From NCBI GenBank assembly GCA_014860585.1, contig JACZJL010000143.1:2543-66542 (forward strand): a DNA stretch of 64,000 bases, in the 5' to 3' direction. A model generated the notes under the pieces. It was not told where the DNA came from and searched no databases. It saw only the letters and a program-made list of their open reading frames with translations. Shown here piece by piece: positions 682 to 37,111 of the stretch. The number at the start of each line of letters is the position of its first letter. Within the stretch, counting starts at the first letter, position 1. Both the position numbers and the translations under genes were made by a program. The stretch is from Bacteroidales bacterium. GTDB taxonomy: Bacteria; Bacteroidota; Bacteroidia; Bacteroidales; 4484-276.

Positions 682-1569
682 ATGAAAGCTTATGTTTTCC
701 CCGGTCAGGGGGCACAGTTTGTCGGGATGGGAAAGGATTTATACGAGAAGTTCCCGGCCGCGAAGGAACTCTTTGAAAAAGCCAACAAAATTCTCGGTTT
801 CAGGATAACAGATATCATGTTTGATGGAACAGATGACGATTTGAAAGAGACCAAAGTTACTCAACCTGCAATTTTTTTACACTCAGTTATTTTGGCCAGG
901 ATGCTGAAGGACAGCTTTAAACCTGATATGGTTGCAGGACACTCGTTGGGTGAGTTTTCGGCGCTGGTTTCCAATAAATCGCTTTCGTTTGAGGATGGTC
1001 TTAAGCTGGTCAGTAAAAGGGCTCAGGCCATGCAAAAAGCCTGCGAAGCTGAGCCTTCAACCATGGCTGCCATTCTTGGTCTTGATGATGCTGTTGTTGA
1101 AAAGGTTTTAAAAGACATCAACGAAATTGTTGTTCCTGCCAACTATAATAGCCCCGGGCAATTGGTTATTTCAGGTTCGGTAAAAGGTATCGAGATAGCT
1201 TGTGCAAAACTTACTGACGCAGGCGCCAAACGTGCTTTGCAATTAAAAGTAGGGGGAGCATTTCATTCGCCATTGATGGAACCTGCCAGGCTTGAGCTGT
1301 CCAAAGCTATTGAAACTACTAAGTTTGTCAAGGGAATTTGCCCTATTTATCAAAACGTAACAGCTCAACCGGTGACAGATCCGGAAATTATCAAATCGAA
1401 CCTTATCGCTCAGCTTACCGCACCGGTTCGCTGGACACAAATCATGAAGAACATGCTTGCTGATGGGGTAAAACAAGTAGTTGAGGTTGGGCCGGGAACT
1501 GTTCTTCAGGGCCTGTTTAAGAAAGTTGATCGTAACCTGGATGCCACAAGTGCTGTGATTGAGGAGTAG
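682..1569 (+). CDS. fabD: malonyl CoA-acyl carrier protein transacylase
   Basis: 295 aa. N-terminus is FPGQGAQFVGMG, the active-site motif is GHSLGEFSAL, and a later GGAFHSPLM motif is present. Confidence 0.92.
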   Translation: MKAYVFPGQGAQFVGMGKDLYEKFPAAKELFEKANKILGFRITDIMFDGTDDDLKETKVTQPAIFLHSVILARMLKDSFKPDMVAGHSLGEFSALVSNKSLSFEDGLKLVSKRAQAMQKACEAEPSTMAAILGLDDAVVEKVLKDINEIVVPANYNSPGQLVISGSVKGIEIACAKLTDAGAKRALQLKVGGAFHSPLMEPARLELSKAIETTKFVKGICPIYQNVTAQPVTDPEIIKSNLIAQLTAPVRWTQIMKNMLADGVKQVVEVGPGTVLQGLFKKVDRNLDATSAVIEE

Positions 1570-1802: not shown

Positions 1803-3179
1803 ATGAATCGAATAGCAGTTAATTTTTTTGCCGTTTTCATCGCCCTGATTTATGCTGCTTTACCTGCCTGTGCAGAGGAGGAAGAAAATCCATTTAGCGA
1901 TAAGTCGAAAGTTTACAGGGTTTACACATTAAATATTAAGGAGATGATTGCACCTCCGGTCTGGCACTTGACAAAAAAAGCACTGCAATCAGCAAAGGAC
2001 ACCGCTGCCGATTTGATTCTGATCGATATGAATACCTATGGAGGAATGCTCGAATCGGCAGACTCGATCAGGACGGCAATTTTGCAATCATCCATTCCGG
2101 TTTGGGTTTTTATTGATAACAACGCTGCCTCTGCAGGAGCATTGATCTCTATTGCCTGCGACAGTATTTACATGCGTCCCGGAGCAAATATTGGTGCTGC
2201 TACCGTTGTTGATCAATCCGGTGAAGTTGTGCCGGACAAGTATCAATCCTACATGCGTTCGATGATGCGTGCGACGGCCGAAGCCAAAGGACGAGATCCG
2301 AAAATCGCTGAGGGTATGGTTGACCCGCGAATTAAAATCCCAGGTGTATCCGACTCGGGACAGGTAATCACCTTTACCACATCTGAAGCAATCAAATTCG
2401 GATTTTCTGAAGCTCAGGCAGAAAGTCTTCAGGATGTGCTTAATGTTGCTGGAATTAAAGAATATGAAATCATCAACCATGAGCTGACGTTTACCGACAG
2501 GATTATCCGTTTTTTAATCAGCCCTGTTGTTTCAGGAATCCTGATCATGGTGATCATCGGCGGGTTGTATTTTGAGTTACAAACACCCGGGGTAGGATTT
2601 CCAATTGCAGCCTCTATTTTGGCTGCTTTGCTCTATTTTATGCCGTTATACCTCGAAGGCATTGCAACACACTGGGAAATTATTATTTTCATCGTCGGAG
2701 TAATTCTTATTGCCCTGGAAGTGTTTGTCATACCTGGTTTTGGTGTGGCTGGTATAACGGGCATAGTGCTTGTAGTTGCCGGCCTTGCGCTTGGTATGGT
2801 TGACATCAAGGGTTTCGAGCTTGGAAGTTTCCCTTTCAGAGAACTAACAGTTTCCTTGTTCATCGTAATCATAGCCACTTTTATTTCGCTAACACTTTCG
2901 TTCTGGATCAGCCGAAAACTTTTCACAACAACAACTTTTGGGCACCTGGCACTTGCCACGACTCAGGAAAGTTCAGAGGGTTACACTTCAGCACTTGAAT
3001 CTTATACCCGTATGATTGGCCTGGAAGGCATTTCAAAAACGGTATTGAGGCCATCCGGCAAAATACTGATCGATGAAGAAACCTATGATGCTACAGCCGA
3101 GTCGGGATTTATCGAAAAAGGCGAACCAATCAAAGTTACGCGCTATATCAATTCCCAGCTGTTTGTGAGAAAACTGTAA
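1803..3179 (+). CDS. nfeD: NfeD-family membrane-bound ClpP-class serine protease
   Basis: 458 aa with a signal peptide. The ClpP/SppA-like segment reads LILIDMNTYGGMLESA...NNAASAGALISIACDSIYM. A central block of TM helices follows, then a C-terminal NfeD OB-fold-like tail (GEPIKVTRYINSQLFVRKL). Confidence 0.75.
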   Translation: MNRIAVNFFAVFIALIYAALPACAEEEENPFSDKSKVYRVYTLNIKEMIAPPVWHLTKKALQSAKDTAADLILIDMNTYGGMLESADSIRTAILQSSIPVWVFIDNNAASAGALISIACDSIYMRPGANIGAATVVDQSGEVVPDKYQSYMRSMMRATAEAKGRDPKIAEGMVDPRIKIPGVSDSGQVITFTTSEAIKFGFSEAQAESLQDVLNVAGIKEYEIINHELTFTDRIIRFLISPVVSGILIMVIIGGLYFELQTPGVGFPIAASILAALLYFMPLYLEGIATHWEIIIFIVGVILIALEVFVIPGFGVAGITGIVLVVAGLALGMVDIKGFELGSFPFRELTVSLFIVIIATFISLTLSFWISRKLFTTTTFGHLALATTQESSEGYTSALESYTRMIGLEGISKTVLRPSGKILIDEETYDATAESGFIEKGEPIKVTRYINSQLFVRKL

Positions 3180-20399: not shown

Positions 20400-20552
20400 C
20401 AGCAGATTTTAATCTGATTTTCAGATTAAACCAATGGAGAAATTTGATTGATTGCAACCATTAAAAAAAATGCTAAAACAATTCGTTTTAACAGCCTTCC
20501 AGTCATCATTTCCTCCAATTTTCGGATAAAACAAATTTAAAATCATCAACAA

Positions 20553-21854
20553 ATGAGTTATTTATTTACGTCAGAGTCGGTGTCTGAAGGGCATCCCGAC
20601 AAAGTCGCCGATCAGATTTCAGATGCTTTACTCGATGAATTTTTACGTCATGACCCCAATTCAAAAGTTGCATGTGAAACGCTGGTTACTACTGGTTTGG
20701 TAGTACTAAGCGGTGAAGTTAAAACCAATGGTTATGTTGAAGTCCAGGATGTTGCCCGCAATGTCATTAACAAAATCGGATACACCAAGCCATCTTACCG
20801 GTTTGATGGAAATTCATGTGGTGTGATCTCAACCATTCACGAGCAATCAGGAGATATCAACCAGGGAGTCGAAAGACCTGATGAAAAAAATCAGGGCGCC
20901 GGTGACCAGGGCCTGATGTTCGGTTATGCCGTGCGTGAAATGGACAACCTGATGCCTTTGCCGATTGAACTGGCACACATTCTTATGCAGCAACTGGCAG
21001 CAATTCGTCACGAAGGAAAAGTAATGACCTACCTCGGCCCTGACTCCAAGTCGCAGGTCACCGTTGAATATGACGACGACAACACACCGGTACGCATTGA
21101 TACCATCGTAGTTTCCACACTTCACGATGAATTTGATACTGACCAGGCAATGTCCGCTAGAATCGAAGATGATGTAAGGAAATATCTGATTCCAAGGGCA
21201 GTTCAGGAAACACCGAAAAAATTCAGACATCTTTTCAAGGACGATTTTAAACTCCATATTAATCCTACGGGGAAATTTGTAACTGGTGGGCCACACGGCG
21301 ATACCGGTCTCACCGGACGCAAAATTATTGTTGACACTTACGGAGGTAGAGTAGCTCATGGCGGCGGCGCATTTTCAGGCAAGGATGCCTCGAAAGTTGA
21401 CCGTTCGGCGGCTTATGCCACTCGCCATCTGGCTAAAAACCTTGTAGCTGCAGGCGTAGCGGATGAAGTGCTGGTACAGGTGGCTTATGCCATCGGCCTT
21501 GCTAAACCAGTTGGTATTTTTATTAAAACTTTTGGAACAGCCAAAGTAACTGACGCTGACGGGAAGTTGATGAAGGACAGCCTGATCGCCAAAATTGTAG
21601 ATGAAATTTACGATCTAACGCCATACGCCATTATCAACCATTTTGGGCTGAAAAATCCTATTTTCTCCCGGACAACAACTTACGGCCACTTCGGAAGAGA
21701 TCACTACAAAGAGGATGTCGAAGTATATTTTGAAAATGACTCCACATTCAGGAAAACAGTTGACGGAAAAGAGCGGATTTTCAAAACTGTGGAGTTTTTC
21801 GGCTGGGAAAAGCTGGATTATGTGGATAAATTTAAAAAGGCGTTCAACATTTAG
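20553..21854 (+). CDS. metK: S-adenosylmethionine synthase
   Basis: 433 aa. Motifs [19 protein letters not shown] and GGGAFSGKD. Confidence 0.94.
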
Positions 21855-22467: not shown

Positions 22468-22534
22468 AATTATTAGTATCAGAATTTTGGTCAAACGCTA
22501 ATCCCGGTAATATATTTTTTCAATCGAATTACAG

Positions 22535-26063: not shown

Positions 26064-26816
26064 TTGATCAGAGCCGTTATCATTGATGATGAAAAGCAAT
26101 CACGCAGTACGCTGACCAGTCTGGTTGAGCGTTATTGCCACAATGTAATGCTGGTAGGCGAAGCTGATGGTGTCCGCTCCGGAATGGAGGTGATAAAGAG
26201 TACTCAGCCCGACCTTGTTTTTCTTGATATTCAGATGCAGGATGGGAGTGGTTTTAAGTTGCTCGACTACCTTGATAAAATTGATTTTCAGATAGTTTTT
26301 ACAACAGCATTTGATCAGTTTGCCATTAGGGCCTTTAAATACAATGCCCTGGATTACCTGCTTAAACCCATTATTCCTCAGGACTTGATTAATGCAGTGA
26401 ACAGGGCGGAATACATTAAGGAACAACAAAAATATCTTGAAGGACAAAATATTGACGAACTTATCGAAGCGCATAAAAAGGCGACCGATTCACAAAAGAT
26501 CACCCTCACAACTGCCGATAAAATCCATCTGATAATGGTAAACAATATAATAAGGTGTGAATCGGATAATTACTACACCAGGTTTTTCTTCACGGACGCG
26601 AAAACATTGCTTGTTTCAAAGACACTGAAGGAAACCGAAAAGTTGCTTCACGACTTCGATTTTATGCGTCCGCACAAGTCACATCTGGTAAATCTCCGCT
26701 ATATCAAAGGATTTTTAAAACATGAAGGCGGTTTTATTTTGATGTCAGATGGCACCGAAGTTCCTGTTGCCCGAAGAAAAAAAGAAATGGTTCTTAAAAT
26801 ATTAAATCAATTGTAA
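26064..26816 (+). CDS. LytR/AlgR-family response regulator (receiver + LytTR DNA-binding domain)
   Basis: 250 aa. The receiver has IIDDE, DLVFLDIQMQDGSG and LLKP. The C-terminal LytTR-like segment runs ITLTTADKIHLIMVNNIIRCESDNYYTRFFF...HKSHLVNLRYIKGF. Confidence 0.88.
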   Translation: MIRAVIIDDEKQSRSTLTSLVERYCHNVMLVGEADGVRSGMEVIKSTQPDLVFLDIQMQDGSGFKLLDYLDKIDFQIVFTTAFDQFAIRAFKYNALDYLLKPIIPQDLINAVNRAEYIKEQQKYLEGQNIDELIEAHKKATDSQKITLTTADKIHLIMVNNIIRCESDNYYTRFFFTDAKTLLVSKTLKETEKLLHDFDFMRPHKSHLVNLRYIKGFLKHEGGFILMSDGTEVPVARRKKEMVLKILNQL

Positions 26817-26990
26817 ATCAATATTATAAATAGATAATTAATACATTAACCCAGATTTGAACAAGAAAAATTTGTAAAGATATTAAAACGGCTTGTTGCA
26901 ACCAATGGCTTTAGCTTTTACATCATAAATATCATTAATACAGTGGTTTAGAGGCTAAATCGTAGTTAGGTTAAAGGGATTTCCTCTAAA

Positions 26991-27020
26991 CCGAAAACTT
27001 ACATTTAAGAGCCGAAAACT
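26991..27020 (+). promoter_or_regulatory. candidate LytTR operator: perfect 9-bp direct repeat CCGAAAACT - 12 nt - CCGAAAACT
   Basis: Repeat 1 is at 26991-26999, the spacer TACATTTAAGAG at 27000-27011, and repeat 2 at 27012-27020. The site lies 175 nt downstream of the LytTR regulator gene and 72 nt upstream of the ATG at 27092. Near-consensus -7 boxes follow at 27037-27044 (TTCATTTG) and 27052-27059 (TATTTTTA). Confidence 0.5.
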
Positions 27021-27091
27021 GATTTTTTGGACAGGGTTCATTTGTGCCTTGTATTTTTACTTGTTCAAGTTGCGAAAAATAGTTTTTCAAA

Positions 27092-27613
27092 ATGGAAGAT
27101 TACATTTACTACTTAATGCTTGTTGTTTGGCTTGTTTTCTCATTTTATCAACAGAGTCAGAAGAAGAAGCGAAAAAAAGCTGAAATGGAAGCGGCTCAGG
27201 CCAGGCAGGAGCAGAACCGGCAGTATGATGAACAGAAACCGGCAGGAGCAGGCACAGAAGCGCCGCCAGACTCAGGATTCAAAAAGATACTCGAAGAGTT
27301 ACTGGGAGAGGAAGAAGTATTAGTGCCAGAATATGAAACGAGGCCGGTTGAAGTAACCAGAAATTTTGATGAGGAGAGCGTCAGTGAAAGAAATGAATAT
27401 CAGAAATACCTTGAGAGTAAAAGTTACAAGGAGGGCGAATCACTTGAGATGGGATACTTGTCAAGGAGTAGCCTGGAAGATAAGATCGTTGAACTGGAAA
27501 AGGACATGAAACTGCAGGAACATGAGTTGGAAGTGACTGAATCTCATTATTCAAGTGCGTTTAATTTGCGTAGTGCAGTGATTTACTCAGAGGTACTGAA
27601 ACGAAAATATTAA
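27092..27613 (+). CDS. hypothetical small membrane protein (N-terminal TM helix, charged E/K/Q-rich remainder)
   Basis: 173 aa. YIYYLMLVVWLVFSFY is followed by KKKRKK. No terminator is visible before the next gene. Confidence 0.5.
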   Translation: MEDYIYYLMLVVWLVFSFYQQSQKKKRKKAEMEAAQARQEQNRQYDEQKPAGAGTEAPPDSGFKKILEELLGEEEVLVPEYETRPVEVTRNFDEESVSERNEYQKYLESKSYKEGESLEMGYLSRSSLEDKIVELEKDMKLQEHELEVTESHYSSAFNLRSAVIYSEVLKRKY

Positions 27614-27730
27614 TTAAGTATCATTTTAAATAGAGGACTAAAAGAAAAAAGGTTTGGCCGTAAGATTTTTTTATTACTAATTTTACCGCCCTTTAGCAAC
27701 AAAGTATAATCTAACGTAAAATTATATGAT

Positions 27731-30700
27731 ATGTTAAAACATTTACTTTTAACAATTGTAGGTTTGTTGGCAATCAACCTGTTGGCATTTTCCCAAACAG
27801 GCTCCATTCAAGGGCAGATACTTGATGCGGATACAAAAGAACCCATTCCGTTTGCCAACGTGGCGATTTATTCGGGAGGTAACCTTCTGACAGGTGCCAC
27901 AACCGATTTTGACGGCAAATATGCTGTCAGGTCATTAAGACCCGGTAACTATTCAGTAAGGGCTTCTTTCGTTGGCTATCAGTCTCGAGAGATATCGGGA
28001 GTAGTTGTTCGTGCGGATCAAATTACCTTTTCGGACATTGAACTAAAGGCTACGGCTGAAGTTTTAGAGACAGTAGAGGTTACTGAATACAAGATACCGC
28101 TCATCTCCAAAGACCAGACAACATCCGGCGCCACCCTGACATCCGAGGAAATTGAAAAAATGCCCAACCGGTCAGCAACCTCAATTGCTACCACGGTGGG
28201 AGGTGTTTATTCAGATGCCGACGGCGGTAGCATCAGTATCCGTGGTCAGCGGCAGGAAGGGACAGTTTATTATATTGATGGAATGCGCGTATTGGGTTCA
28301 ACCAACATGCCTGAGTCGTCCATCGAGCAGGTAGCTGTTATTCTTGGTGGTGTACCCGCTAGGTTTGGAGATGCTACGGGGGGTATTATCAGTTTGACAA
28401 CAAAAGGCCCTTCTCGCGAATTCGGTGGCGGACTGGAGTTACAAACTTCCCAGTTTCTCGATAAGTTCGGCTATAATCGTCTTGGATTTAGTTTGCAGGG
28501 ACCAATTCTGACAAAAAACCAGGATGGTAACAAATCCTCAATCCTTGGCTATTTTATTGCCGGCGATGTTGTTTACCGTGAGGATGGAAGGCCTTCAGTC
28601 AGCGGGTCGATTGACAAGGTAACGGATGAGTATCTTGCCTATTTGAAAGAAAACCCACTGCGACCCTCAGGAACAGGTTTCGGCTCATTCGATAACAGTT
28701 TGTTTACAAAAAAAGCGGATACCGAAAGCATTGAAAATACGCAGAATACAAACTCTCTTGATGTGAGTTTGTCAGGGAAAATTGATATCAAAGTTTCTCC
28801 CACGGTCAATATGTCAATTGGTGGCTCCTACAACGTACAGGATTACAAGGCGTTTCAGTATGCAGGCTCTTTGTTTAACTACGAAAATAATCCCCATGTT
28901 TACAATAATACATGGCGTGTTTATGGCAGGTTAACCCAAAGATTTTCAACTGACCGGGAGAGTAGTTCCACAATCAGGAATGTTTTTTATACGATCCAGG
29001 CCGACTACTCGAAATTTTATCAGGTGGTTGAGGATGATTCCCATCGTGACGATCTTTTCAAATATGGGTATTTGGGGAAATATGATACTTACAAGCGCAG
29101 GTCCTACGAGATTGGAACTGATACCGTTAATGGTCAGATTTATTCCAATGTTTGGGTGCAAAATGCTTTCCAGGATACTGCATTCACTTTCCAGCCTTAC
29201 GAATTTAATCCTGTAGTAGCCCGCTATACGGAGCAGTATTATGAGTTTTATCCTGAGAAAGGCGATTGGAGAGATCCAGCTAATGGATACTGGCTTAATT
29301 CCAATCAGGTGCAACTTTATGGTGGTTTACTTAATGGACAGTCGCCTGATAATGTTTACACGATGTGGCAGGGTTTAGGGGCACAATACAATGGATACTC
29401 GGTAGCAAATAACTCACAGGTGGGGATTTCTGCCAATGCATCTGCCGACATCGGAAACCACGCGATTGAGTTCGGTTTGCAATACGAACAGCGCACAAAT
29501 AGCTCTTATGGATATGGTCCTGTAGGTCTTTGGACTATGATGCGTCAGATCACCAATGCGCACATCAACGAATTGGATAAAAGCAGTGCACATCTTGTTG
29601 TGGTGGATGGTGTTTTTCAGGATACTATCAATTATGACCGACTCTATAGTTTCACGGATCAGCGGATTTTTGATATCAATCTCAGGGAAAGACTTGGATT
29701 GAATGTTCAAGGTACCGATTGGATTGACATTGATTCTTACGATCCAAACACCCAAACCATCAGTTATTTCGATGCCAATGGAAATTTAAATAAAAACATT
29801 CCTCTCAGAGGAGGTTTATCCATTGATATGTTCAGTCCCGATGAGTTGTTCAACGATGGTTTCAGCTATGTAAATTACTATGGATACGATCCTTATGGTA
29901 ATAAACAATCAAGTCGTCCCGCGTTTGATGATTTTTTCAACAAAACAGAAAGCATCTTACTACCAAACGGGCAGACCAAATTCTATAATACACGGGATAT
30001 TGGAGCATTCCAACCTATTTACATGGCAGGTTATATCCAGGATAAATTTGCATTCGACGATTTGATTTTTAACATTGGAGTTCGTGTTGACCGCTTTGAT
30101 GCCAACCAGATGGTACTGAAAGATCCTTACCTGTTCTATTCAGCATATACTGCTGATGAGGTAAAAACAGTCGGTGGAAAGCAGGTGACCCATCCGGGTA
30201 GTGTTAGCGGTGATGCAGTGGTTTATATTGATAATAAAGACAATCCTTCAGAAATATTAGGATATCGCGAAGGAAGTGTATGGTACAATGCTACCGGTAG
30301 TGTTATTCAAAACCCTGAAATACTTGATGCAGGAAATGGCATTACACCGTACCTTGTTAACCCGGGGCAAAATCAAATTACATCAGATGTTTTTAAAGAT
30401 TATGATCCTCAGGTAAGTGTAATGCCCCGTATTTCATTCTCTTTCCCGATTTCTGATGAAGCACTTTTCTTTGCTCACTACGATATTCTTACCCAGAGGC
30501 CAACTTCTGCATTGAGAATGGATCCAACGGATTATTTTTTCATTGCACAACGTGGAAGTATCAATAATCCCAATCTAAAACCTGAAAAAACCATTGATTA
30601 TGAACTGGGCTTCCAGCAAAAGATAAGCAATTCATCCTCTCTTAAATTATCAGCATTCTATCGCGAAATGCGCGATCAGATTCAATATTTCCGCTACACA

Positions 30701-31495
30701 GGTGCTTACACAGGAGCTACTTCACTTTACGATAGTTACACCAATCTCGACTTTGCAACAGTTAAAGGGTTGACTGTTGAATATGACCTGAGAAGAACAA
30801 GCAATGTTAGAGCAAGGGTAAGTTACACGCTTCAGTTTGCTGACGGAACCGGGTCAAGTCCGAATACTGCTGCTGCACTTGTCAGCGCAGGCTTACCAAA
30901 CCTCAGGCAGGTCTTCCCGTTGGATTGGGACAGGAGGCATTCTTTTAACATAAGTCTTGATTACAGGTTTGGCGAAGGGAAAGGATATACCGGGCCAACC
31001 TCTACCAAGCAGATTAAAGGTACAGAACAGGTTAAAACCATTCAATGGTTGCAAAATACAGGCGCCAACTTTACGCTTAGCGGCGGTTCGGGAACACCTT
31101 TCACAAGGTCAGATAATATCATTGGAGTGTATGCCGGTGGCGGTGGTTATCAGCTGGACGGATCCATAAATGGTTCACGTTTGCCCTGGCAGTTTCGAAT
31201 TGATGCTCGTTTAGACAGAGATATTCAGGTGTCGAAAAAGCCCAATGCTACCACATACCTTAACGTTTATCTGCAATTTTTAAACCTTCTGGATACCAAG
31301 AACATCATCAGCGTTTATCCTGCCACAGGAAGTCCGGATGATGATGGTTACCTCACTGCTCCTGAATGGCAGAGTAACATCAATACATCAACTGACCCGG
31401 AAGCTTACCGCGATCTGTATGCATTGAGGATGAATTCGCCATTTAATTACAGTTTACCCCGCCAGATAAGGCTTGGTGTTGTTTTTAACTTTTAG
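27731..31495 (+). CDS. oversized TonB-dependent-receptor-type outer-membrane barrel (carboxypeptidase-regulatory-like domain + plug + about 1000-aa barrel)
   Basis: 1254 aa with a signal peptide. The CarboxypepD_reg-like segment is GSIQGQILDADTKEPIPFANVAIY...GNYSVRASFVGYQS. The plug-like segment is TSEEIEKMPNRSATSIATTVGGVY...ISIRGQRQEGTVYYIDGMRV. The C-terminus RLGVVFNF ends in an aromatic residue. Confidence 0.8.
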   Translation: MLKHLLLTIVGLLAINLLAFSQTGSIQGQILDADTKEPIPFANVAIYSGGNLLTGATTDFDGKYAVRSLRPGNYSVRASFVGYQSREISGVVVRADQITFSDIELKATAEVLETVEVTEYKIPLISKDQTTSGATLTSEEIEKMPNRSATSIATTVGGVYSDADGGSISIRGQRQEGTVYYIDGMRVLGSTNMPESSIEQVAVILGGVPARFGDATGGIISLTTKGPSREFGGGLELQTSQFLDKFGYNRLGFSLQGPILTKNQDGNKSSILGYFIAGDVVYREDGRPSVSGSIDKVTDEYLAYLKENPLRPSGTGFGSFDNSLFTKKADTESIENTQNTNSLDVSLSGKIDIKVSPTVNMSIGGSYNVQDYKAFQYAGSLFNYENNPHVYNNTWRVYGRLTQRFSTDRESSSTIRNVFYTIQADYSKFYQVVEDDSHRDDLFKYGYLGKYDTYKRRSYEIGTDTVNGQIYSNVWVQNAFQDTAFTFQPYEFNPVVARYTEQYYEFYPEKGDWRDPANGYWLNSNQVQLYGGLLNGQSPDNVYTMWQGLGAQYNGYSVANNSQVGISANASADIGNHAIEFGLQYEQRTNSSYGYGPVGLWTMMRQITNAHINELDKSSAHLVVVDGVFQDTINYDRLYSFTDQRIFDINLRERLGLNVQGTDWIDIDSYDPNTQTISYFDANGNLNKNIPLRGGLSIDMFSPDELFNDGFSYVNYYGYDPYGNKQSSRPAFDDFFNKTESILLPNGQTKFYNTRDIGAFQPIYMAGYIQDKFAFDDLIFNIGVRVDRFDANQMVLKDPYLFYSAYTADEVKTVGGKQVTHPGSVSGDAVVYIDNKDNPSEILGYREGSVWYNATGSVIQNPEILDAGNGITPYLVNPGQNQITSDVFKDYDPQVSVMPRISFSFPISDEALFFAHYDILTQRPTSALRMDPTDYFFIAQRGSINNPNLKPEKTIDYELGFQQKISNSSSLKLSAFYREMRDQIQYFRYTGAYTGATSLYDSYTNLDFATVKGLTVEYDLRRTSNVRARVSYTLQFADGTGSSPNTAAALVSAGLPNLRQVFPLDWDRRHSFNISLDYRFGEGKGYTGPTSTKQIKGTEQVKTIQWLQNTGANFTLSGGSGTPFTRSDNIIGVYAGGGGYQLDGSINGSRLPWQFRIDARLDRDIQVSKKPNATTYLNVYLQFLNLLDTKNIISVYPATGSPDDDGYLTAPEWQSNINTSTDPEAYRDLYALRMNSPFNYSLPRQIRLGVVFNF

Positions 31496-31554
31496 ATCAA
31501 TTTTTTCAATCGCTTGATTTTATGAATAAAGCAAATAATAAAATAAGTATAGAG

Positions 31555-34500
31555 ATGAAAAACATTTTACACACGCTGTTGGTGTTTGCTGTGATGAGCT
31601 TAATTGTCCAGCAGGGCTATGCAGAAAAATATGTTAACGAAGAAAAGTCCAGGGAGATTAAAGCCAGTGCAGCAGGATGTCCTGCAGGTGCAGGTTTTGC
31701 TTTCCTTGACGTAAATAATGTTCGTGCCCGAATCAATACTGGCGGAGATATGTGGTGGAATTTCGACAGGGCACAATATTATGTACCCGCCAACACAGAA
31801 AAAACCTCCATGTTTTCTGCTTCTCTCTGGATTGGTGGTCTTGACGTTAACGGTCAGTTGAAACTTGCCGCTCAGCGTTACAGGCAGGTTGGTATTGATT
31901 ATTGGCCAGGCCCCCTTTCGATGGTTGATGCATCCATAGATGAAGAAACCTGCGCCCAGTATGATCAGATGTTCAGAATGACCCGTCAGATGGTGGATGA
32001 CTACCTTGCATGGTGGAACAGCACAAATCGTGCTGAAGAGTTTCCCGGCTATGTAATCCCCGATGAAATCCTGAATTGGCCGGCACACGGCGACGTAGCC
32101 AAAGGACAAAGTTATTACCTGGCGCCTTTTGTGGATACTGACGGTGATGGAAATTACGATCCGACACAAGGCGACTATCCCTATTATGATATAGACAATA
32201 GCCTGTGCCGCACCCAAACCCCTACAATGGATGCCCAGTTTTACCATCCTGACGATCCTGAAAACTGGAAGTATGGGATTCTTGCCGACCAGGTCATTAA
32301 AGGCGACCAAACACTTTGGTGGGTTTTTAATGATAAAGGAAATATCCACACTGAAACCAAGGGAGCGGCTATTGGTTTGGAAATCAGAGGCCAGTCTTTT
32401 GGCTTTGCTACAAATGATGAAATTAATAACATGACCTTTTACAGTTATGAAATCATTAACCGTTCAACTTTTTCGTTGACCCAAACCTATTTTAGCCAAT
32501 GGGTTGACACTGACCTTGGCTACGCCTGGGACGATTATGTAGGTTGTGATGTGGGAAGAGGACTTGGTTATTGCTACAATGGTTTCCCAATTGACGGAAC
32601 CGGTGAGGTTGAAGCCTATGGGGAACAACCTCCTGCCATCGGAGTGGACTTCTTCCAGGGGCCATATATGGATCCGGATAATACCGATAATCCAAAATTT
32701 ATTTTTGTTACCAATGCACAGGGAGATACTATTGATCAAATTCAAATTTGTGATGTAAGTATCAATGGTGTGAACTTTGGTGATGGTATTGTGGATAATG
32801 AGCGTTTTGGTATGAGAAGATATGTTTACCACAATAACACTTCACCCAACCCGGCAACTACCGACCCGAGTTTAGCACCGGAATATTACAACTACCTCAG
32901 AGGAATCTGGAAAGACAATACTAAAATGTCCTATGGCGGAACTGCACATGTGAGCGATGCAGCAGCAGTTGGTCCTGATTGTGACTTTATGTTTCCAAGC
33001 GATACTGACCCGTGCAACTGGGGTACTGGAGGCGTGCCACCCAATGATGGTTTTAACCAGGATGGCAAATACTGGACAGAAGAAACCCAAAATAATCAAC
33101 CCGGTGACCGTCGTTTCATGCAGTCTGCCGGCCCGTTTACCCTGGAACCAGGTGCTGTTAACTACATCACTGTGGGTATCCCCTGGGCACGTGCTACTAC
33201 CGGTGGTCCCTGGGCTTCAGTAGAATTATTGCGAGTGGTGGATGATAAATGCCAGGCCTTGTTTGATAACTGCTTTAAAGTGCTTGATGGGCCGGATGCT
33301 CCGGACCTTTCCTTTCTTGAAACAGATCGCAAGCTCATTGTCTTTATATCCAACCGTAAAGGATCAAACAACTACAAAGAATCTTACTCAGAAATTGATC
33401 CTAACATTCAATTATTGGAGGATTCTATCCCATTACCTCAAAATGTCGAAGATTCATTGAGAACCTATTTCTTTGAAGGTTACCAAATCTACCAGCTTCG
33501 CTACCCGGAAGTTAGTGTCGAAAGCCTTGATGATCCTGACCTGGCTCGCCTGGTGGCTCAGTATGATATCAAAAATGGAATTTCCAAGTTAGTCAACATT
33601 TATTTCGACCAGTCCATAGGGTTTAGTGTTCCGGTAGTTGAAGTTGTTGGACGTGATGAAGGGATTAGCCACTCCTTTGAATTAACACAAGACGCCTTTG
33701 CTGAAAAAGATCCTAAGTTGGTCAATCATAGGCAGTATTATTTCATGGTGTTGGCTTACGCGTTCAATGAGTATTCGCCTTACAGTGAAGAACCCGGCGT
33801 TCTTAACGGTTTGTTTGGGCAAAAAAGACCTTACCTGGCCGGAAGGAAGAACATAAAAGTTTACACGGCAATTCCTCATAAAACCGTTGGTGGAATGGAG
33901 TTGAATTCCGAATATGGAGACGGCTTCCCAATTACCCGATTGCAGGGTCAGGGTAACGCCGGTGTGGGGATTGACATGAGCCCTGAAAGCATTCAGGAAT
34001 TGCTTGCTAAACCACCTATTGAATATCCAAATTACGTTAATCCTCCCTATGGCATTAAGTCGTTGCAACAAAAACTGATTCCTTCTACGGTTATAGGCGA
34101 TGCGAACTATCCGATAGTTTACAACCCGAAATATCTTCAGGGCAAAGGTCCATTAAAAGTTAAGGTTGTAGATCCAATGAACATTAAAAGCGGGAAATTC
34201 AGGGTTGAACTTTTCGATGTGGAAATGCCATTTACAGTGTCAACTGCCAACGATACAATTTATGACACGCTTACAATTGCCAGAGCAAACTGGAGACTTA
34301 TTGATGAGGGTGGTAATAGTTGGATATCAGACACTACTATTGACCAACGAAATGAACAGATAATTCCAGAACTGGGTGTATCTGTGAATATGGAACAGAT
34401 TGCTTTCCCCGGAGAAACAAATGCTGTAAATAATGCTTTTATCAAGTCAGAGATCATCTATCAGGACAGCTCGCAGCTTTGGTTCTCTGGTGTACCTGAT

Positions 34501-35928
34501 TTTGATGTTCCTTCAAATCCGCTCAACTGGATAAGATCAGGTGTTTATGTTGACGGAAACAGCCCGTATAACGACTGGAATATGAGCGCCGACAGCCCAC
34601 TTGATGCCGGGCAGTATTATGAAAAAGTTATCCCGATGACTGTCAGGATATTTGGTGAGGACTTGACCGGAGGAACATGGGCGCCTTTCCCACTGGTTGC
34701 TACACGGATTAATATGGATTATGGTCATGGTCCTGCACCAACTGGATCAAAACCTGCAGATTTAAAAAATATTTCCAGTATTGATGTTGTACTTACAAGT
34801 GACAAATCACAATGGACCAGATGCCCGGTTGTGGAATTGTGTCCTGACCCAATGCTCGCTGAAGGAAATGCACCTCAATATACCTTGCGTCGTTCACCTT
34901 CAGTGAACAAGGATGGAGTATTTGCTGACCCGCAGGCCGCACCAAGTATGGATCCTGCTGATGCAAATTACGTCTCTGCAACAGGAATGGGCTGGTTCCC
35001 TGGTTATGCAATTAATTTGGAAACCGGTGAAAGGTTAAATGTAATGTTTGGTGAAAACTCCTGGCTTGCTGGCGACAATGGAAGGGATATGCAATGGAAC
35101 CCTACTTCCACAGTAGTAAATGAAACAAATTTTGCCCCGGTATTAGGTGGTATGCATTATCTCTATGTTATGGATAATCGCAAGGTTATCATTGGATCTG
35201 GAGCAAATGCTTTTAACTTCGATTTTACTGCCTATGATGCTGGTGTGAAACTGTATCATACGTTCAAAATCAGTTCAGACTCCCTACCTATCGGTACCGT
35301 GGTTCTCCCGGCAATTTACCAGAGTTGTCAGTGGGTTAATATCCCGTTAAAAGCTGAAAATCAACCCTGGTTGCCTGCCGGCAATGATGCAACCATAAAA
35401 ATTAGGGTTGGGAAACCATATCAGCGGTATTTATCTAGAGCAGTGGAGCCAGACAATCCTGTGAATACGAACAATTTTAATCCGGCTTATGAATTTGAGA
35501 CTACCGGAATGGAGGCTGTACCGTTCTCAGCACAACAAAATGATCAGCACCTTGACATGATCAATGTAGTACCAAATCCTTACTACGCTTATGCCGATGG
35601 GCCAGGTTATGAACGAAATCAACTGGATACCAGGGTAAAGATTATCAATCTTCCACCTCGTTGTACTGTCACAATCTACAATATCAGCGGGACACTCATA
35701 CGACAGTATAACGTTGATAAAACAGGCATTCCCAACCCACGGGCCTCCACTAATGGCGAGGATACAGATGCACAGACCTCTATTGATTGGGATCTGAAAA
35801 ACTTTGCCGGAATTCCTATTGCCGGAGGTATTTATTTGATTCATGTCAAAGAATCCGGCGGCCGCAACGGTGAGCGCGTGATCAAATGGTTTGGCACAAT
35901 GAGACCTATTGACCTGAATACGTTCTAA
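31555..35928 (+). CDS. giant secreted hypothetical protein with an atypical T9SS-like C-terminal sorting domain
   Basis: About 1457 aa from ATG 31555 (track start 31522). The signal peptide is MKNILHTLLVFAVMSLIVQQGYA. Cysteines come in pairs and there is a Ca-binding-like loop DTDGDGNYD. The last 120 aa or so read VVPNPYYAY...TVTIYNISGTLIRQY...IDWDLKNFAGIPIAGGIYLIHVKE...KWFGTMR. I recognise no catalytic motif. Confidence 0.75.
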   Translation: MKNILHTLLVFAVMSLIVQQGYAEKYVNEEKSREIKASAAGCPAGAGFAFLDVNNVRARINTGGDMWWNFDRAQYYVPANTEKTSMFSASLWIGGLDVNGQLKLAAQRYRQVGIDYWPGPLSMVDASIDEETCAQYDQMFRMTRQMVDDYLAWWNSTNRAEEFPGYVIPDEILNWPAHGDVAKGQSYYLAPFVDTDGDGNYDPTQGDYPYYDIDNSLCRTQTPTMDAQFYHPDDPENWKYGILADQVIKGDQTLWWVFNDKGNIHTETKGAAIGLEIRGQSFGFATNDEINNMTFYSYEIINRSTFSLTQTYFSQWVDTDLGYAWDDYVGCDVGRGLGYCYNGFPIDGTGEVEAYGEQPPAIGVDFFQGPYMDPDNTDNPKFIFVTNAQGDTIDQIQICDVSINGVNFGDGIVDNERFGMRRYVYHNNTSPNPATTDPSLAPEYYNYLRGIWKDNTKMSYGGTAHVSDAAAVGPDCDFMFPSDTDPCNWGTGGVPPNDGFNQDGKYWTEETQNNQPGDRRFMQSAGPFTLEPGAVNYITVGIPWARATTGGPWASVELLRVVDDKCQALFDNCFKVLDGPDAPDLSFLETDRKLIVFISNRKGSNNYKESYSEIDPNIQLLEDSIPLPQNVEDSLRTYFFEGYQIYQLRYPEVSVESLDDPDLARLVAQYDIKNGISKLVNIYFDQSIGFSVPVVEVVGRDEGISHSFELTQDAFAEKDPKLVNHRQYYFMVLAYAFNEYSPYSEEPGVLNGLFGQKRPYLAGRKNIKVYTAIPHKTVGGMELNSEYGDGFPITRLQGQGNAGVGIDMSPESIQELLAKPPIEYPNYVNPPYGIKSLQQKLIPSTVIGDANYPIVYNPKYLQGKGPLKVKVVDPMNIKSGKFRVELFDVEMPFTVSTANDTIYDTLTIARANWRLIDEGGNSWISDTTIDQRNEQIIPELGVSVNMEQIAFPGETNAVNNAFIKSEIIYQDSSQLWFSGVPDFDVPSNPLNWIRSGVYVDGNSPYNDWNMSADSPLDAGQYYEKVIPMTVRIFGEDLTGGTWAPFPLVATRINMDYGHGPAPTGSKPADLKNISSIDVVLTSDKSQWTRCPVVELCPDPMLAEGNAPQYTLRRSPSVNKDGVFADPQAAPSMDPADANYVSATGMGWFPGYAINLETGERLNVMFGENSWLAGDNGRDMQWNPTSTVVNETNFAPVLGGMHYLYVMDNRKVIIGSGANAFNFDFTAYDAGVKLYHTFKISSDSLPIGTVVLPAIYQSCQWVNIPLKAENQPWLPAGNDATIKIRVGKPYQRYLSRAVEPDNPVNTNNFNPAYEFETTGMEAVPFSAQQNDQHLDMINVVPNPYYAYADGPGYERNQLDTRVKIINLPPRCTVTIYNISGTLIRQYNVDKTGIPNPRASTNGEDTDAQTSIDWDLKNFAGIPIAGGIYLIHVKESGGRNGERVIKWFGTMRPIDLNTF

Positions 35929-35965
35929 TGATAAATAGATTGGAAATTTTAAATAACTAAGAATT

Positions 35966-37033
35966 ATGAAAAATTTTTATAGATACACAGTCGCAATTCT
36001 TTTATCGGTGGCTTTCCTGCTTCCTATCCAAAACCTGGTTGGCGGTAACCCGGACCGCTCTGGTCAGGCCGGTGCTTCTGAACTGCTGATCAACCCTTGG
36101 GTTGGAAGTTCTGGTTGGGGTGGTGCAAGTATAGCCTGTTCAAGGGGTCTTGAATCAATATATACGAACGTTGCCGGAACCGCCTTTACTAAAGGAACGG
36201 AATTGATTTTTGCCAACACCAATTATCTCAAAGGTGCTGACATCAATATTATGAACTTTGGGTTTTCACAGCGCGTTGGTGAAGCTGGCGCATTATCAAT
36301 AGCCATCATGTCAATGAACTTTGGTGATGTCAACAGAACTACCATTTTAAATCCTGATCCGACAGATGCCAATATTGGAACATTTGCACCTAACCTGCTT
36401 AACATAAGTATTGCATATGCTAAAGCATTTTCAAACAGCATATATGGCGGTTTCAACCTGAAGATTATCTCCGAATCTATCGCTGACCTGAGTGCCCAGG
36501 GTATTGCCATCGATGCAGGTATCCAATATGTAACAGGACCCCAGGAGAATGTGAAATTCGGTATTGCCCTGAAAAATGTTGGTCCTACAATGAAATTCTC
36601 AGGTGATGGATTAACCTTCAGAGGTTTCTACAATCAGTTTTCACGCACTTCACCCACTTTTGTGCAGCCATCCTCTGAATTTGAACTCCCGGCTCAACTT
36701 TCAATCGGTGGAGCTTACGACTTCCTTTTTAGCGAAAACAGATTTACTTTGGCGGGTGCTTTCATTTCAAACTCATTTACAAAAGACCAGTTTACCCTCG
36801 GTGGCGAATTTGCGCTAAAATCTTACCTTGTGCTTCGTGCAGGTTATACTTACGAAGATGGAATCACAAGTAAGAGCGAGAGGACCACAGTATTCACAGG
36901 ACCAAGTGCAGGCTTGTCAGTTCAGATTCCACTTAATAAAGAGAAAGGATCAATTTTTTCGGTTGATTATTCTTACCGTGATACCGATCCTTTCAGTGGC
37001 GTTCATAGCATTGGAGCACGAATTAGTCTTTAA
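35966..37033 (+). CDS. PorV/PorQ-superfamily-like outer-membrane beta-barrel (possible cargo-specific T9SS adaptor)
   Basis: 355 aa with a signal peptide. The N-terminal motif GQAGASELLINPWVGSSGWGGASIA...NVAGTAF has the pattern of PorV/PorQ-type barrels. The remainder is an alternating beta-strand pattern. The gene starts 37 nt after the giant CTD protein. Confidence 0.45.
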   Translation: MKNFYRYTVAILLSVAFLLPIQNLVGGNPDRSGQAGASELLINPWVGSSGWGGASIACSRGLESIYTNVAGTAFTKGTELIFANTNYLKGADINIMNFGFSQRVGEAGALSIAIMSMNFGDVNRTTILNPDPTDANIGTFAPNLLNISIAYAKAFSNSIYGGFNLKIISESIADLSAQGIAIDAGIQYVTGPQENVKFGIALKNVGPTMKFSGDGLTFRGFYNQFSRTSPTFVQPSSEFELPAQLSIGGAYDFLFSENRFTLAGAFISNSFTKDQFTLGGEFALKSYLVLRAGYTYEDGITSKSERTTVFTGPSAGLSVQIPLNKEKGSIFSVDYSYRDTDPFSGVHSIGARISL

Positions 37034-37082: not shown

Positions 37083-37111
37083 AAGGCCCTTTTTTCGGAA
37101 AGGGTCTTTTT
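37083..37111 (+). terminator. intrinsic-terminator-like hairpin (3' end of the upstream operon and/or a greA leader terminator)
   Basis: AAGGCCCTTT-tttcgg-AAAGGGTCTT forms a 10-bp stem (one G-U pair) followed by TTTTTC. It lies downstream of the -7 box at 37064-37071 and 42 nt upstream of the greA ATG. Confidence 0.6.

Follow-up and report, generated by a model that had tools for sequence, protein, structure and literature searches.

The window analysed here is a 64-kb stretch (64,000 nucleotides) of a Bacteroidales genome. In it, the genes for a sensor histidine kinase and a response regulator are followed by a gene for a small protein of 173 amino acids (p173) and by genes for proteins of 1254, 1468 and 355 amino acids (Table 1). 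A two-part direct repeat lies between the regulator gene and p173, with 174 bp between the end of the regulator gene and the distal copy.

Table 1 Genes, repeats and promoter elements of the locus, with positions in the window
Feature	Position	Strand	Description
Sensor histidine kinase, 1051 aa	22825-25980	+	7 Reg_prop, Y_Y_Y and PF06580 His_kinase (Pfam)
Response regulator, 250 aa, TTG start	26064-26816	+	Receiver and LytTR DNA-binding domain (Pfam)
Distal repeat CCGAAAACTTACA	26991-27003	+	9-bp core at 26991-26999
Proximal repeat CCGAAAACTGATT	27012-27024	+	Full match to the family consensus CCGwwAACTGATT
Bacteroidota-type -7 box TATTTTTA	27052-27059	+	40 bp after the start of the proximal repeat
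Second, weaker -7-type box TAGTTTTT	27080-27087	+	
p173, 173 aa	27092-27613	+	Small protein; N-terminal membrane helix, charged middle
Internal canonical promoter of the outer-membrane genes	27653-27685	+	-33 TTTG at 27653-27656, 21-nt spacer, -7 TAATTTTA at 27678-27685
Outer-membrane protein, 1254 aa	27731-31495	+	CarboxypepD_reg and TonB-dependent Plug; weak TonB-dependent barrel match
Protein of 1468 aa	31522-35928	+	No Pfam family
PorV/PorQ-family outer-membrane protein, 355 aa	35966-37033	+	NF033709, 128.9 bits (cut-off 90)
Intrinsic terminator-like hairpin	37083-37108	+	11-bp stem and T run; ends the outer-membrane unit before greA

A first reading of the DNA, made from the sequence only, had described the two regulatory genes as a LytS-type kinase and a LytTR regulator. 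Based on Pfam, the description stands for the signalling domains: the kinase has a PF06580 His_kinase domain and the regulator a receiver and a LytTR domain (Response_reg 5e-19, LytTR 1e-16), the combination by which LytS/LytTR two-component systems are recognized. It does not stand for the sensor. The N-terminal 800 amino acids of the kinase consist of Reg_prop repeats and Y_Y_Y, without a Pfam hit to 5TMR_LYT, and form a beta-propeller/Y_Y_Y sensor instead of a LytS-type membrane sensor. The regulator is encoded by the only LytTR/REC open reading frame of the window, and its translation has the receiver residues D8/D9, D55, T80/T81 and K101. The best NCBIfam matches of the regulator are BtsR (5.5e-38) and LytR (3.6e-32), at 130.7 bits against an equivalog cut-off of 246 and at 112.1 bits against a cut-off of 375, respectively. 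Because these scores are so far below the cut-offs, the regulator is, judged by its sequence, not an orthologue of BtsR or LytR. A sequence search of solved structures matched its receiver domain and not its LytTR domain, and the DNA-contact residues can therefore not be mapped. Conservation does not discriminate between the two domains (0.76 for LytTR, 0.77 for the receiver).

Among the genes downstream, p173 matched no Pfam or NCBIfam family. It belongs to an uncharacterised family that comprises the product of 27092-27613 and homologues in the related loci L012, L019, L021, L022, L024 and L025. Its members share an N-terminal MEDxI.. and membrane helix, a middle region rich in Lys and Glu whose length varies, and a conserved C-terminus (..LR.AV[IV]YSEIL[NK]R[KP]Y; ..AVIYSEVLKRKY in p173 itself). 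The gene is always directly 5' of the 1254-aa gene, including in loci that lack the two-component system, and it is degenerate, absent or lost in L015, L016, L020 and L147. The C-terminus of the 1468-aa protein has weak, sub-threshold matches to the NCBIfam PorZ C-terminus (E 2.6e-4), to FlgD_ig (E 0.009) and to Por_Secre_tail (E 0.28). The NF033709 match of the 355-aa protein is the PorV/PorQ hit by which a gene cluster is assigned to type IX secretion; the L147 homologue of this protein has a faint PorV match in Pfam. Upstream of the kinase gene, a SAM-II (long-loop) riboswitch (20428-20486, 63 bits) lies directly 5' of an S-adenosylmethionine synthetase gene (20553-21854).

The sequence-only reading reported the repeat as a perfect 9-bp direct repeat with a 12-nt spacer, a distance of 21 bp between the copies and a position about 72 nt 5' of the p173 start codon. 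All of this is exact. The core CCGAAAACT occurs on the + strand at 26991-26999 and 27012-27020, the spacer is TACATTTAAGAG, the period is 21 bp, and 72 nt separate the end of the proximal core (27020) from the ATG at 27092. The region as a whole reads ...AAACCGAAAACTTACATTTAAGAGCCGAAAACTGATTTTTTGG... A further statement, that the window holds no other exact copy of the 9-mer, proved wrong: CCGAAAACT is also found at 953-961 (- strand) and at 2912-2920 (+ strand). These two copies are isolated, with no partner at 21 bp, and are most likely chance occurrences. Matches to the 9-mer with at most one mismatch are not enriched in the 64-kb window (28 found, 19 expected). Thus, the unique feature of the window is the two-part arrangement and not the 9-mer alone.

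This arrangement is the only run of at least nine identical bases at an offset of 21 in the 64-kb window. Based on 20,000 shuffles of the 275-nt intergenic region, the chance of such a repeat is 0.0023 at offset 21, and 0.007 when offsets of 20-22 are allowed. In the alignment of orthologous sites the conserved unit has 13 nt, CCGwwAACTGATT, rather than 9, and its CCG, AAC and T are nearly invariant; in the window, the last four bases of the distal copy depart from this consensus. With a 40-nt weight matrix derived from 16 orthologous sites, position 26991 reaches 47.4 bits, and the runner-up in the window 4.7 bits. Upstream of the kinase gene the motif is absent (best matrix score -4.7 bits, near 22504), and autoregulation through a promoter of the kinase gene was dropped for this reason.

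A search of the genome collection with the 1254-aa protein returned 26 loci, all from metagenome-assembled genomes of Lentimicrobiaceae or other Bacteroidales. The gene order kinase, regulator, p173, 1254-aa, 1468-aa, PorV-like and GreA is kept down to approximately 42% kinase identity, and a kinase orthologue (42-70% identity) is found upstream of the regulator in every locus with enough sequence. The relaxed pattern CCGnnWAC-N13-CCGnnWAC has a single match in the window and a single match per locus in 17 related genome loci, namely 16 with the regulator gene on the contig and one (L014) whose contig starts inside the locus. In the 16, the motif lies 27-177 nt past the regulator stop codon. 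The spacer around the two-part element is otherwise unalignable among the related genome loci.

The sequence-only reading had called for a comparison of orthologous intergenic regions, and here the repeat held up in full. Both copies and the 21-bp period are kept in 18 of the 18 genome loci that have the region and in all 27 regulator-linked loci among the metagenome matches listed. The same arrangement is present in L147, a 4.86-Mb contig with a 58%-identical regulator. Counting genomes, listed metagenome matches and L147 together, approximately 44 regulator-bearing loci, with regulator identities of 49-89%, all keep both copies at the 21-bp period. This conservation clearly points to a functional, conserved cis-element.

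Five loci without the kinase-regulator pair (L012, L021, L022, L024 and L025) also lack the motif 5' of p173. We considered this co-loss as evidence of linkage and gave it little weight: the five loci are a single clade, and with under 180 bp between motif and regulator gene one rearrangement would remove both, functionally linked or not. In this clade the nearest large conserved gene 5' of the p173 module encodes S-adenosylhomocysteine hydrolase, with one or two small open reading frames in between.

Two near-consensus -7 boxes had been noted just 3' of the repeat and both are there, TATTTTTA and the weaker TAGTTTTT (Table 1). The distance of the first box from the repeat is a property of the family. 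Counted from the start of the proximal repeat, a -7 box (TAnnTTTA/G) begins at 40-41 bp in 15 of the 18 genome loci and, among the metagenome matches listed, at 26 of the 27 regulator-linked sites. No good -33 TTTG was found at the canonical distance from TATTTTTA, and none is conserved across sites. In Bacteroidota promoters transcription starts a few bases 3' of the -7 box. We infer a start for the p173 promoter at approximately 27064-27067; the repeats would then be centred near -47 (proximal) and -68 (distal) and would span about -73 to -40. The bioreactor metagenome behind the window was sequenced as DNA only. Four distantly matching metatranscriptomes were available, and their contigs do not cover 26350-27650. 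Because the fixed spacing, the period of two helical turns and the missing -33 element combine, the arrangement is, as far as sequence can tell, the geometry of an activator that would contact RNA polymerase.

The same geometry bears on the direction of control. By analogy with LytTR proteins that repress, such as AgrA bound 3' of the bsaA promoter (PMC4227749), the adjacent regulator might bind the repeat and repress the p173 promoter, or block read-through from its own gene as a roadblock. A repressor would normally bind over or 3' of the core promoter. The site here is wholly 5' of the -7 box and takes the place of the missing -33 element at rigid spacing in approximately 90 listed promoters, which is the geometry of activation. 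We consider repression or a roadblock very improbable.

It could also be argued that the repeat plays no part in DNA binding and is a duplication that arose by chance, a low-complexity feature or a piece of an RNA element (a terminator or leader). The 3' arm of a perfect 10-bp inverted repeat (26945-26954 and 26983-26992; arms GGTTTAGAGG and CCTCTAAACC, 28-nt loop) shares two bases with the start of the distal copy, there is a weak terminator-like hairpin at 27031-27052, and the repeat region (26930-27095) folds slightly better than shuffled sequence (z = -1.97). Against this, the closest relatives (L018, L096 and L001) keep neither hairpin, and the inverted repeat is probably specific to this lineage, since it is absent from all three. 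Rfam returned nothing relevant in the spacer, either in a scan of the window at gathering threshold or in a permissive scan of 26780-27130. The motif is 5' of the conserved -7 box and so outside the inferred transcript. The chance probability is approximately 0.002, and the repeat is kept across loci with completely diverged flanks. The RNA-element reading was rejected on the z of only -1.97 and the unconserved hairpins; for this explanation as a whole, the conservation data appear to amount to an effective refutation, and we give it almost no credence.

The motif is not confined to this locus. A metagenome scan with the pattern CCGWWAACT-N12-CCGWWAACTGATT found at least 120 matching stretches, and by our own calculation one or two are expected by chance. 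Among the 120 matches listed, 27 are orthologous loci with kinase, regulator, motif, p173 and 1254-aa gene, and 8 are tandem or low-complexity repeats, which were discarded to leave 112 non-repetitive sites. At least 85 other promoters ("orphan" sites) carry the motif with no LytTR or receiver gene in the sequence covered. The sequence-only reading saw the motif as a link between this regulator and its neighbouring operon; as a private link it does not survive this count.

The orphan sites have the 21-bp period and the promoter register of the linked ones. A -7 box is at an offset of 40-42 in 47 of 81 distinct sites, and at nearly every other offset in three or fewer. There is a smaller peak at offset 61, one repeat period further (7 sites), which suggests arrays of three sites. 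One contig, L037, has three tandem copies of the 13-mer, the third a 21-bp period further.

We examined the first open reading frames 3' of the orphan sites (56, many of them truncated by contig ends). Por_Secre_tail was found in 20 and CHU_C in 3 (E <= 0.001), and CarboxypepD_reg in 10, of which 5 also have Plug; BNR/Sortilin, peptidase C10 and comparable secreted proteins are among the remainder. Since no more than a few percent of a Bacteroidota proteome consists of sorting-domain proteins, Por_Secre_tail/CHU_C proteins are strongly enriched 3' of the orphan sites. On the upstream side, an HMM of LytTR/REC built from the orthologues found no match beside the orphan sites among the matches listed, and a Pfam scan of 125 upstream neighbours showed no enrichment of LytTR, REC or any HTH family. 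The commonest upstream neighbour is DUF2461 (15 loci). Several metagenomes (e.g., Ga0208789 and Ga0172368) hold one regulator-linked site and several orphans, which looks like the pattern expected of the regulon of a single trans-acting regulator. In L120 the motif is 276 nt 5' of a 48%-identical homologue of the 1254-aa protein. The 3.9 kb upstream have no kinase or regulator gene, and L120 exemplifies a similar target that would be served in trans. Based on these promoters, this regulator family probably acts on a wider regulon, made up of type IX secretion cargo, SusC-like outer-membrane proteins and a candidate small RNA (sRNA).

The candidate sRNA would be new and is approximately 185-193 nt long in seven orphan loci (L030, L058, L075, L087, L116, L122 and L124), with shorter variants in L072 and L076. 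It sits under the same two-part motif and -7 box, between the DUF2461 gene and a convergent gyrB, and starts near GATTAATTTGGTTAATTAA. It has a 5' hairpin and a long stem in which several pairs are compensatory; the stretch UUUUGGGUUAAUAAGUUGUUCGUUUAA is unpaired and invariant, and the terminator is strong. An Rfam scan of 16 orphan loci at gathering threshold found no known RNA family there, and the candidate was not found in the 64-kb window.

To which protein the repeat belongs is a matter of association. The only transcription factor gene that adjoins the motif encodes this LytTR regulator (27 sites among the 120 metagenome matches listed), and over the approximately 44 loci, listed metagenome matches included, it does so always within 180 bp. 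As the sole linked transcription factor, linked over so many loci to an element of LytTR-like architecture, it is the best candidate, and the evidence for it as the putative binder is associative. It is a point against the adjacent regulator that approximately three quarters of the listed motif sites have no regulator gene nearby.

AraC-family activators also bind direct repeats with a 21-bp period that abut the promoter. The element shares this period and promoter-proximal position with AraC/XylS-type sites, and the transcription factor linked to it here is of the LytTR type. The repeat could thus be a real activator operator bound by a factor encoded elsewhere, either a paralogous LytTR or an AraC-type protein, in a broad secretion and outer-membrane regulon to which the adjacent regulator is a neighbour by synteny only. 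Consistent with this, 85 of the 112 non-repetitive metagenome sites listed have no LytTR/REC gene in the sequence covered, and L120 has the motif before a homologue of the 1254-aa gene with no regulator beside it. No class of site shows an enrichment of AraC or another transcription factor family among its neighbours; no AraC/HTH_18 gene is found in the window neighbourhood (Pfam) or among the 25 commonest families of orphan neighbours. The sole transcription factor linked to the motif among the matches listed is again the LytTR regulator, and orphan sites are what the regulon of one regulator is expected to look like, as in the metagenomes with one linked site and several orphans. We regard a factor encoded elsewhere as unlikely, and as the strongest of the alternatives.

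The best explanation of the sequence data is that the neighbouring LytTR regulator activates the downstream genes through the repeat, and we consider this probable. The pair of CCGwwAACTGATT units at 26991-27024 would be a tandem operator to which an activator binds as a head-to-tail dimer, and the period of 21 bp, two helical turns, would place both subunits on one face of the DNA. Directly 3' of the operator would be a promoter with a good -7 box and no good -33 element. The kinase, with its beta-propeller sensor, would phosphorylate the LytTR regulator, and the phosphorylated regulator is the most likely binder of the repeats. Once bound, with the proximal subunit at approximately -47 and the distal one at approximately -68, it would recruit RNA polymerase to transcribe p173. 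As no terminator follows p173, transcription could read through into the genes for the outer-membrane, giant and PorV-like proteins.

The sequence-only reading treated 27092-37033 as one operon. The region is not one simple unit: the 1254-aa gene has a conserved canonical promoter of its own (Table 1). A search for terminators found none between p173 and this gene. This internal promoter is followed by a conserved 5' leader that runs to 27730 (..CCGCCCTTTAGCA..TAATCTAAC.TAAAATTATATG.TATG), which may have a regulatory role of its own. Promoter and leader are near-identical across Lentimicrobiaceae loci whose proteins differ by 25-30%, and a -7 box at this position is also kept in loci without the two-component system. 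These patterns suggest a constitutive-looking internal promoter that works independently of the two-component system. The dependence of the outer-membrane genes on the repeat is uncertain, because they have this promoter.

By its position, the repeat-controlled promoter would directly drive p173. It is plausible that the regulator adds to the expression of the outer-membrane genes only by read-through, given that no terminator is found 3' of p173. In four related loci that have lost p173 (L014, L015, L016 and L020), the motif and its -7 box precede the 1254-aa gene with no open reading frame in between. The 1254-aa gene is therefore the sole protein-coding output of the motif promoter in this clade, which supports read-through as a real output of the putative operator.

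We compared the locus with known LytTR systems. Published LytTR sites consist of two direct or inverted repeats of 9-11 nt, 11-13 nt apart, with no shared consensus (PMC4847170), and the AgrA repeats are directly 5' of suboptimal promoters (PMC4227749). The LytTR-type layout proposed from the sequence, perfect 9-bp repeats with a 12-nt spacer, is within the published range (PMC4847170). Like the operators of AgrA, ComE, PlnC-PlnD, BtsR (YehT) and YpdB, the element has paired repeats (PMC4847170) and a suboptimal upstream promoter element (PMC4227749), and a REC+LytTR gene adjoins the site. It differs from them in several ways. Its unit, CCGwwAACTGATT, is longer at 13 nt and has a sequence of its own, with the binding of the regulator putative; the promoter is of the Bacteroidota -33/-7 type and not -35/-10; the kinase has a periplasmic beta-propeller/Y_Y_Y sensor in place of a peptide-pheromone receptor or a 5TM-LytS; and the motif is present at many unlinked promoters. 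Escherichia coli BtsS/BtsR and Staphylococcus aureus LytS/LytR, the source of the best NCBIfam matches to the regulator, share the PF06580 phospho-acceptor domain, whereas their sensor domain and target genes are unrelated to those here.

In Porphyromonas gingivalis the PorX/PorY-SigP two-component pathway controls type IX secretion genes. The locus is similar in that here, too, a two-component pathway of Bacteroidota is tied to type IX secretion. PorX, which is not known to be a LytTR protein, controls genes of the secretion machinery, whereas the motif here precedes cargo genes, a gene cluster with a PorV-family member and an sRNA. LytTR regulators paired with beta-propeller kinases are numerous in Bacteroidota. 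In the open-access full-text literature we found no binding site or regulon for such regulators, and no paper that links LytTR regulators mechanistically to type IX secretion.

Taken by itself, the site in the window is ordinary and represents a type of operator that is already known; the greater interest lies in the regulon. We propose tentatively, and stop just short of calling it probable, that CCGwwAACTGATT-N8-CCGwwAACTGATT marks an undescribed regulon of Bacteroidales (Lentimicrobiaceae and relatives), in which one beta-propeller kinase/LytTR pair would switch on type IX cargo, SusC- and PorV-like modules and an sRNA of approximately 190 nt. With its 13-nt units, 21-bp period and 40-41 bp to the -7 box, the operator is defined precisely enough to be tested, and the locus supplies a candidate regulator for it. 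The motif is a handle for co-regulated genes in metagenomes, and these genes are rich in type IX secretion cargo. If the regulon is real, this would be the first cis-element and regulator for the control of type IX cargo outside the PorXY-SigP pathway. If the regulator binds as proposed, the element would provide a portable inducible promoter architecture for Bacteroidota, and it would show how environmental Bacteroidales turn on sets of secreted and surface proteins.
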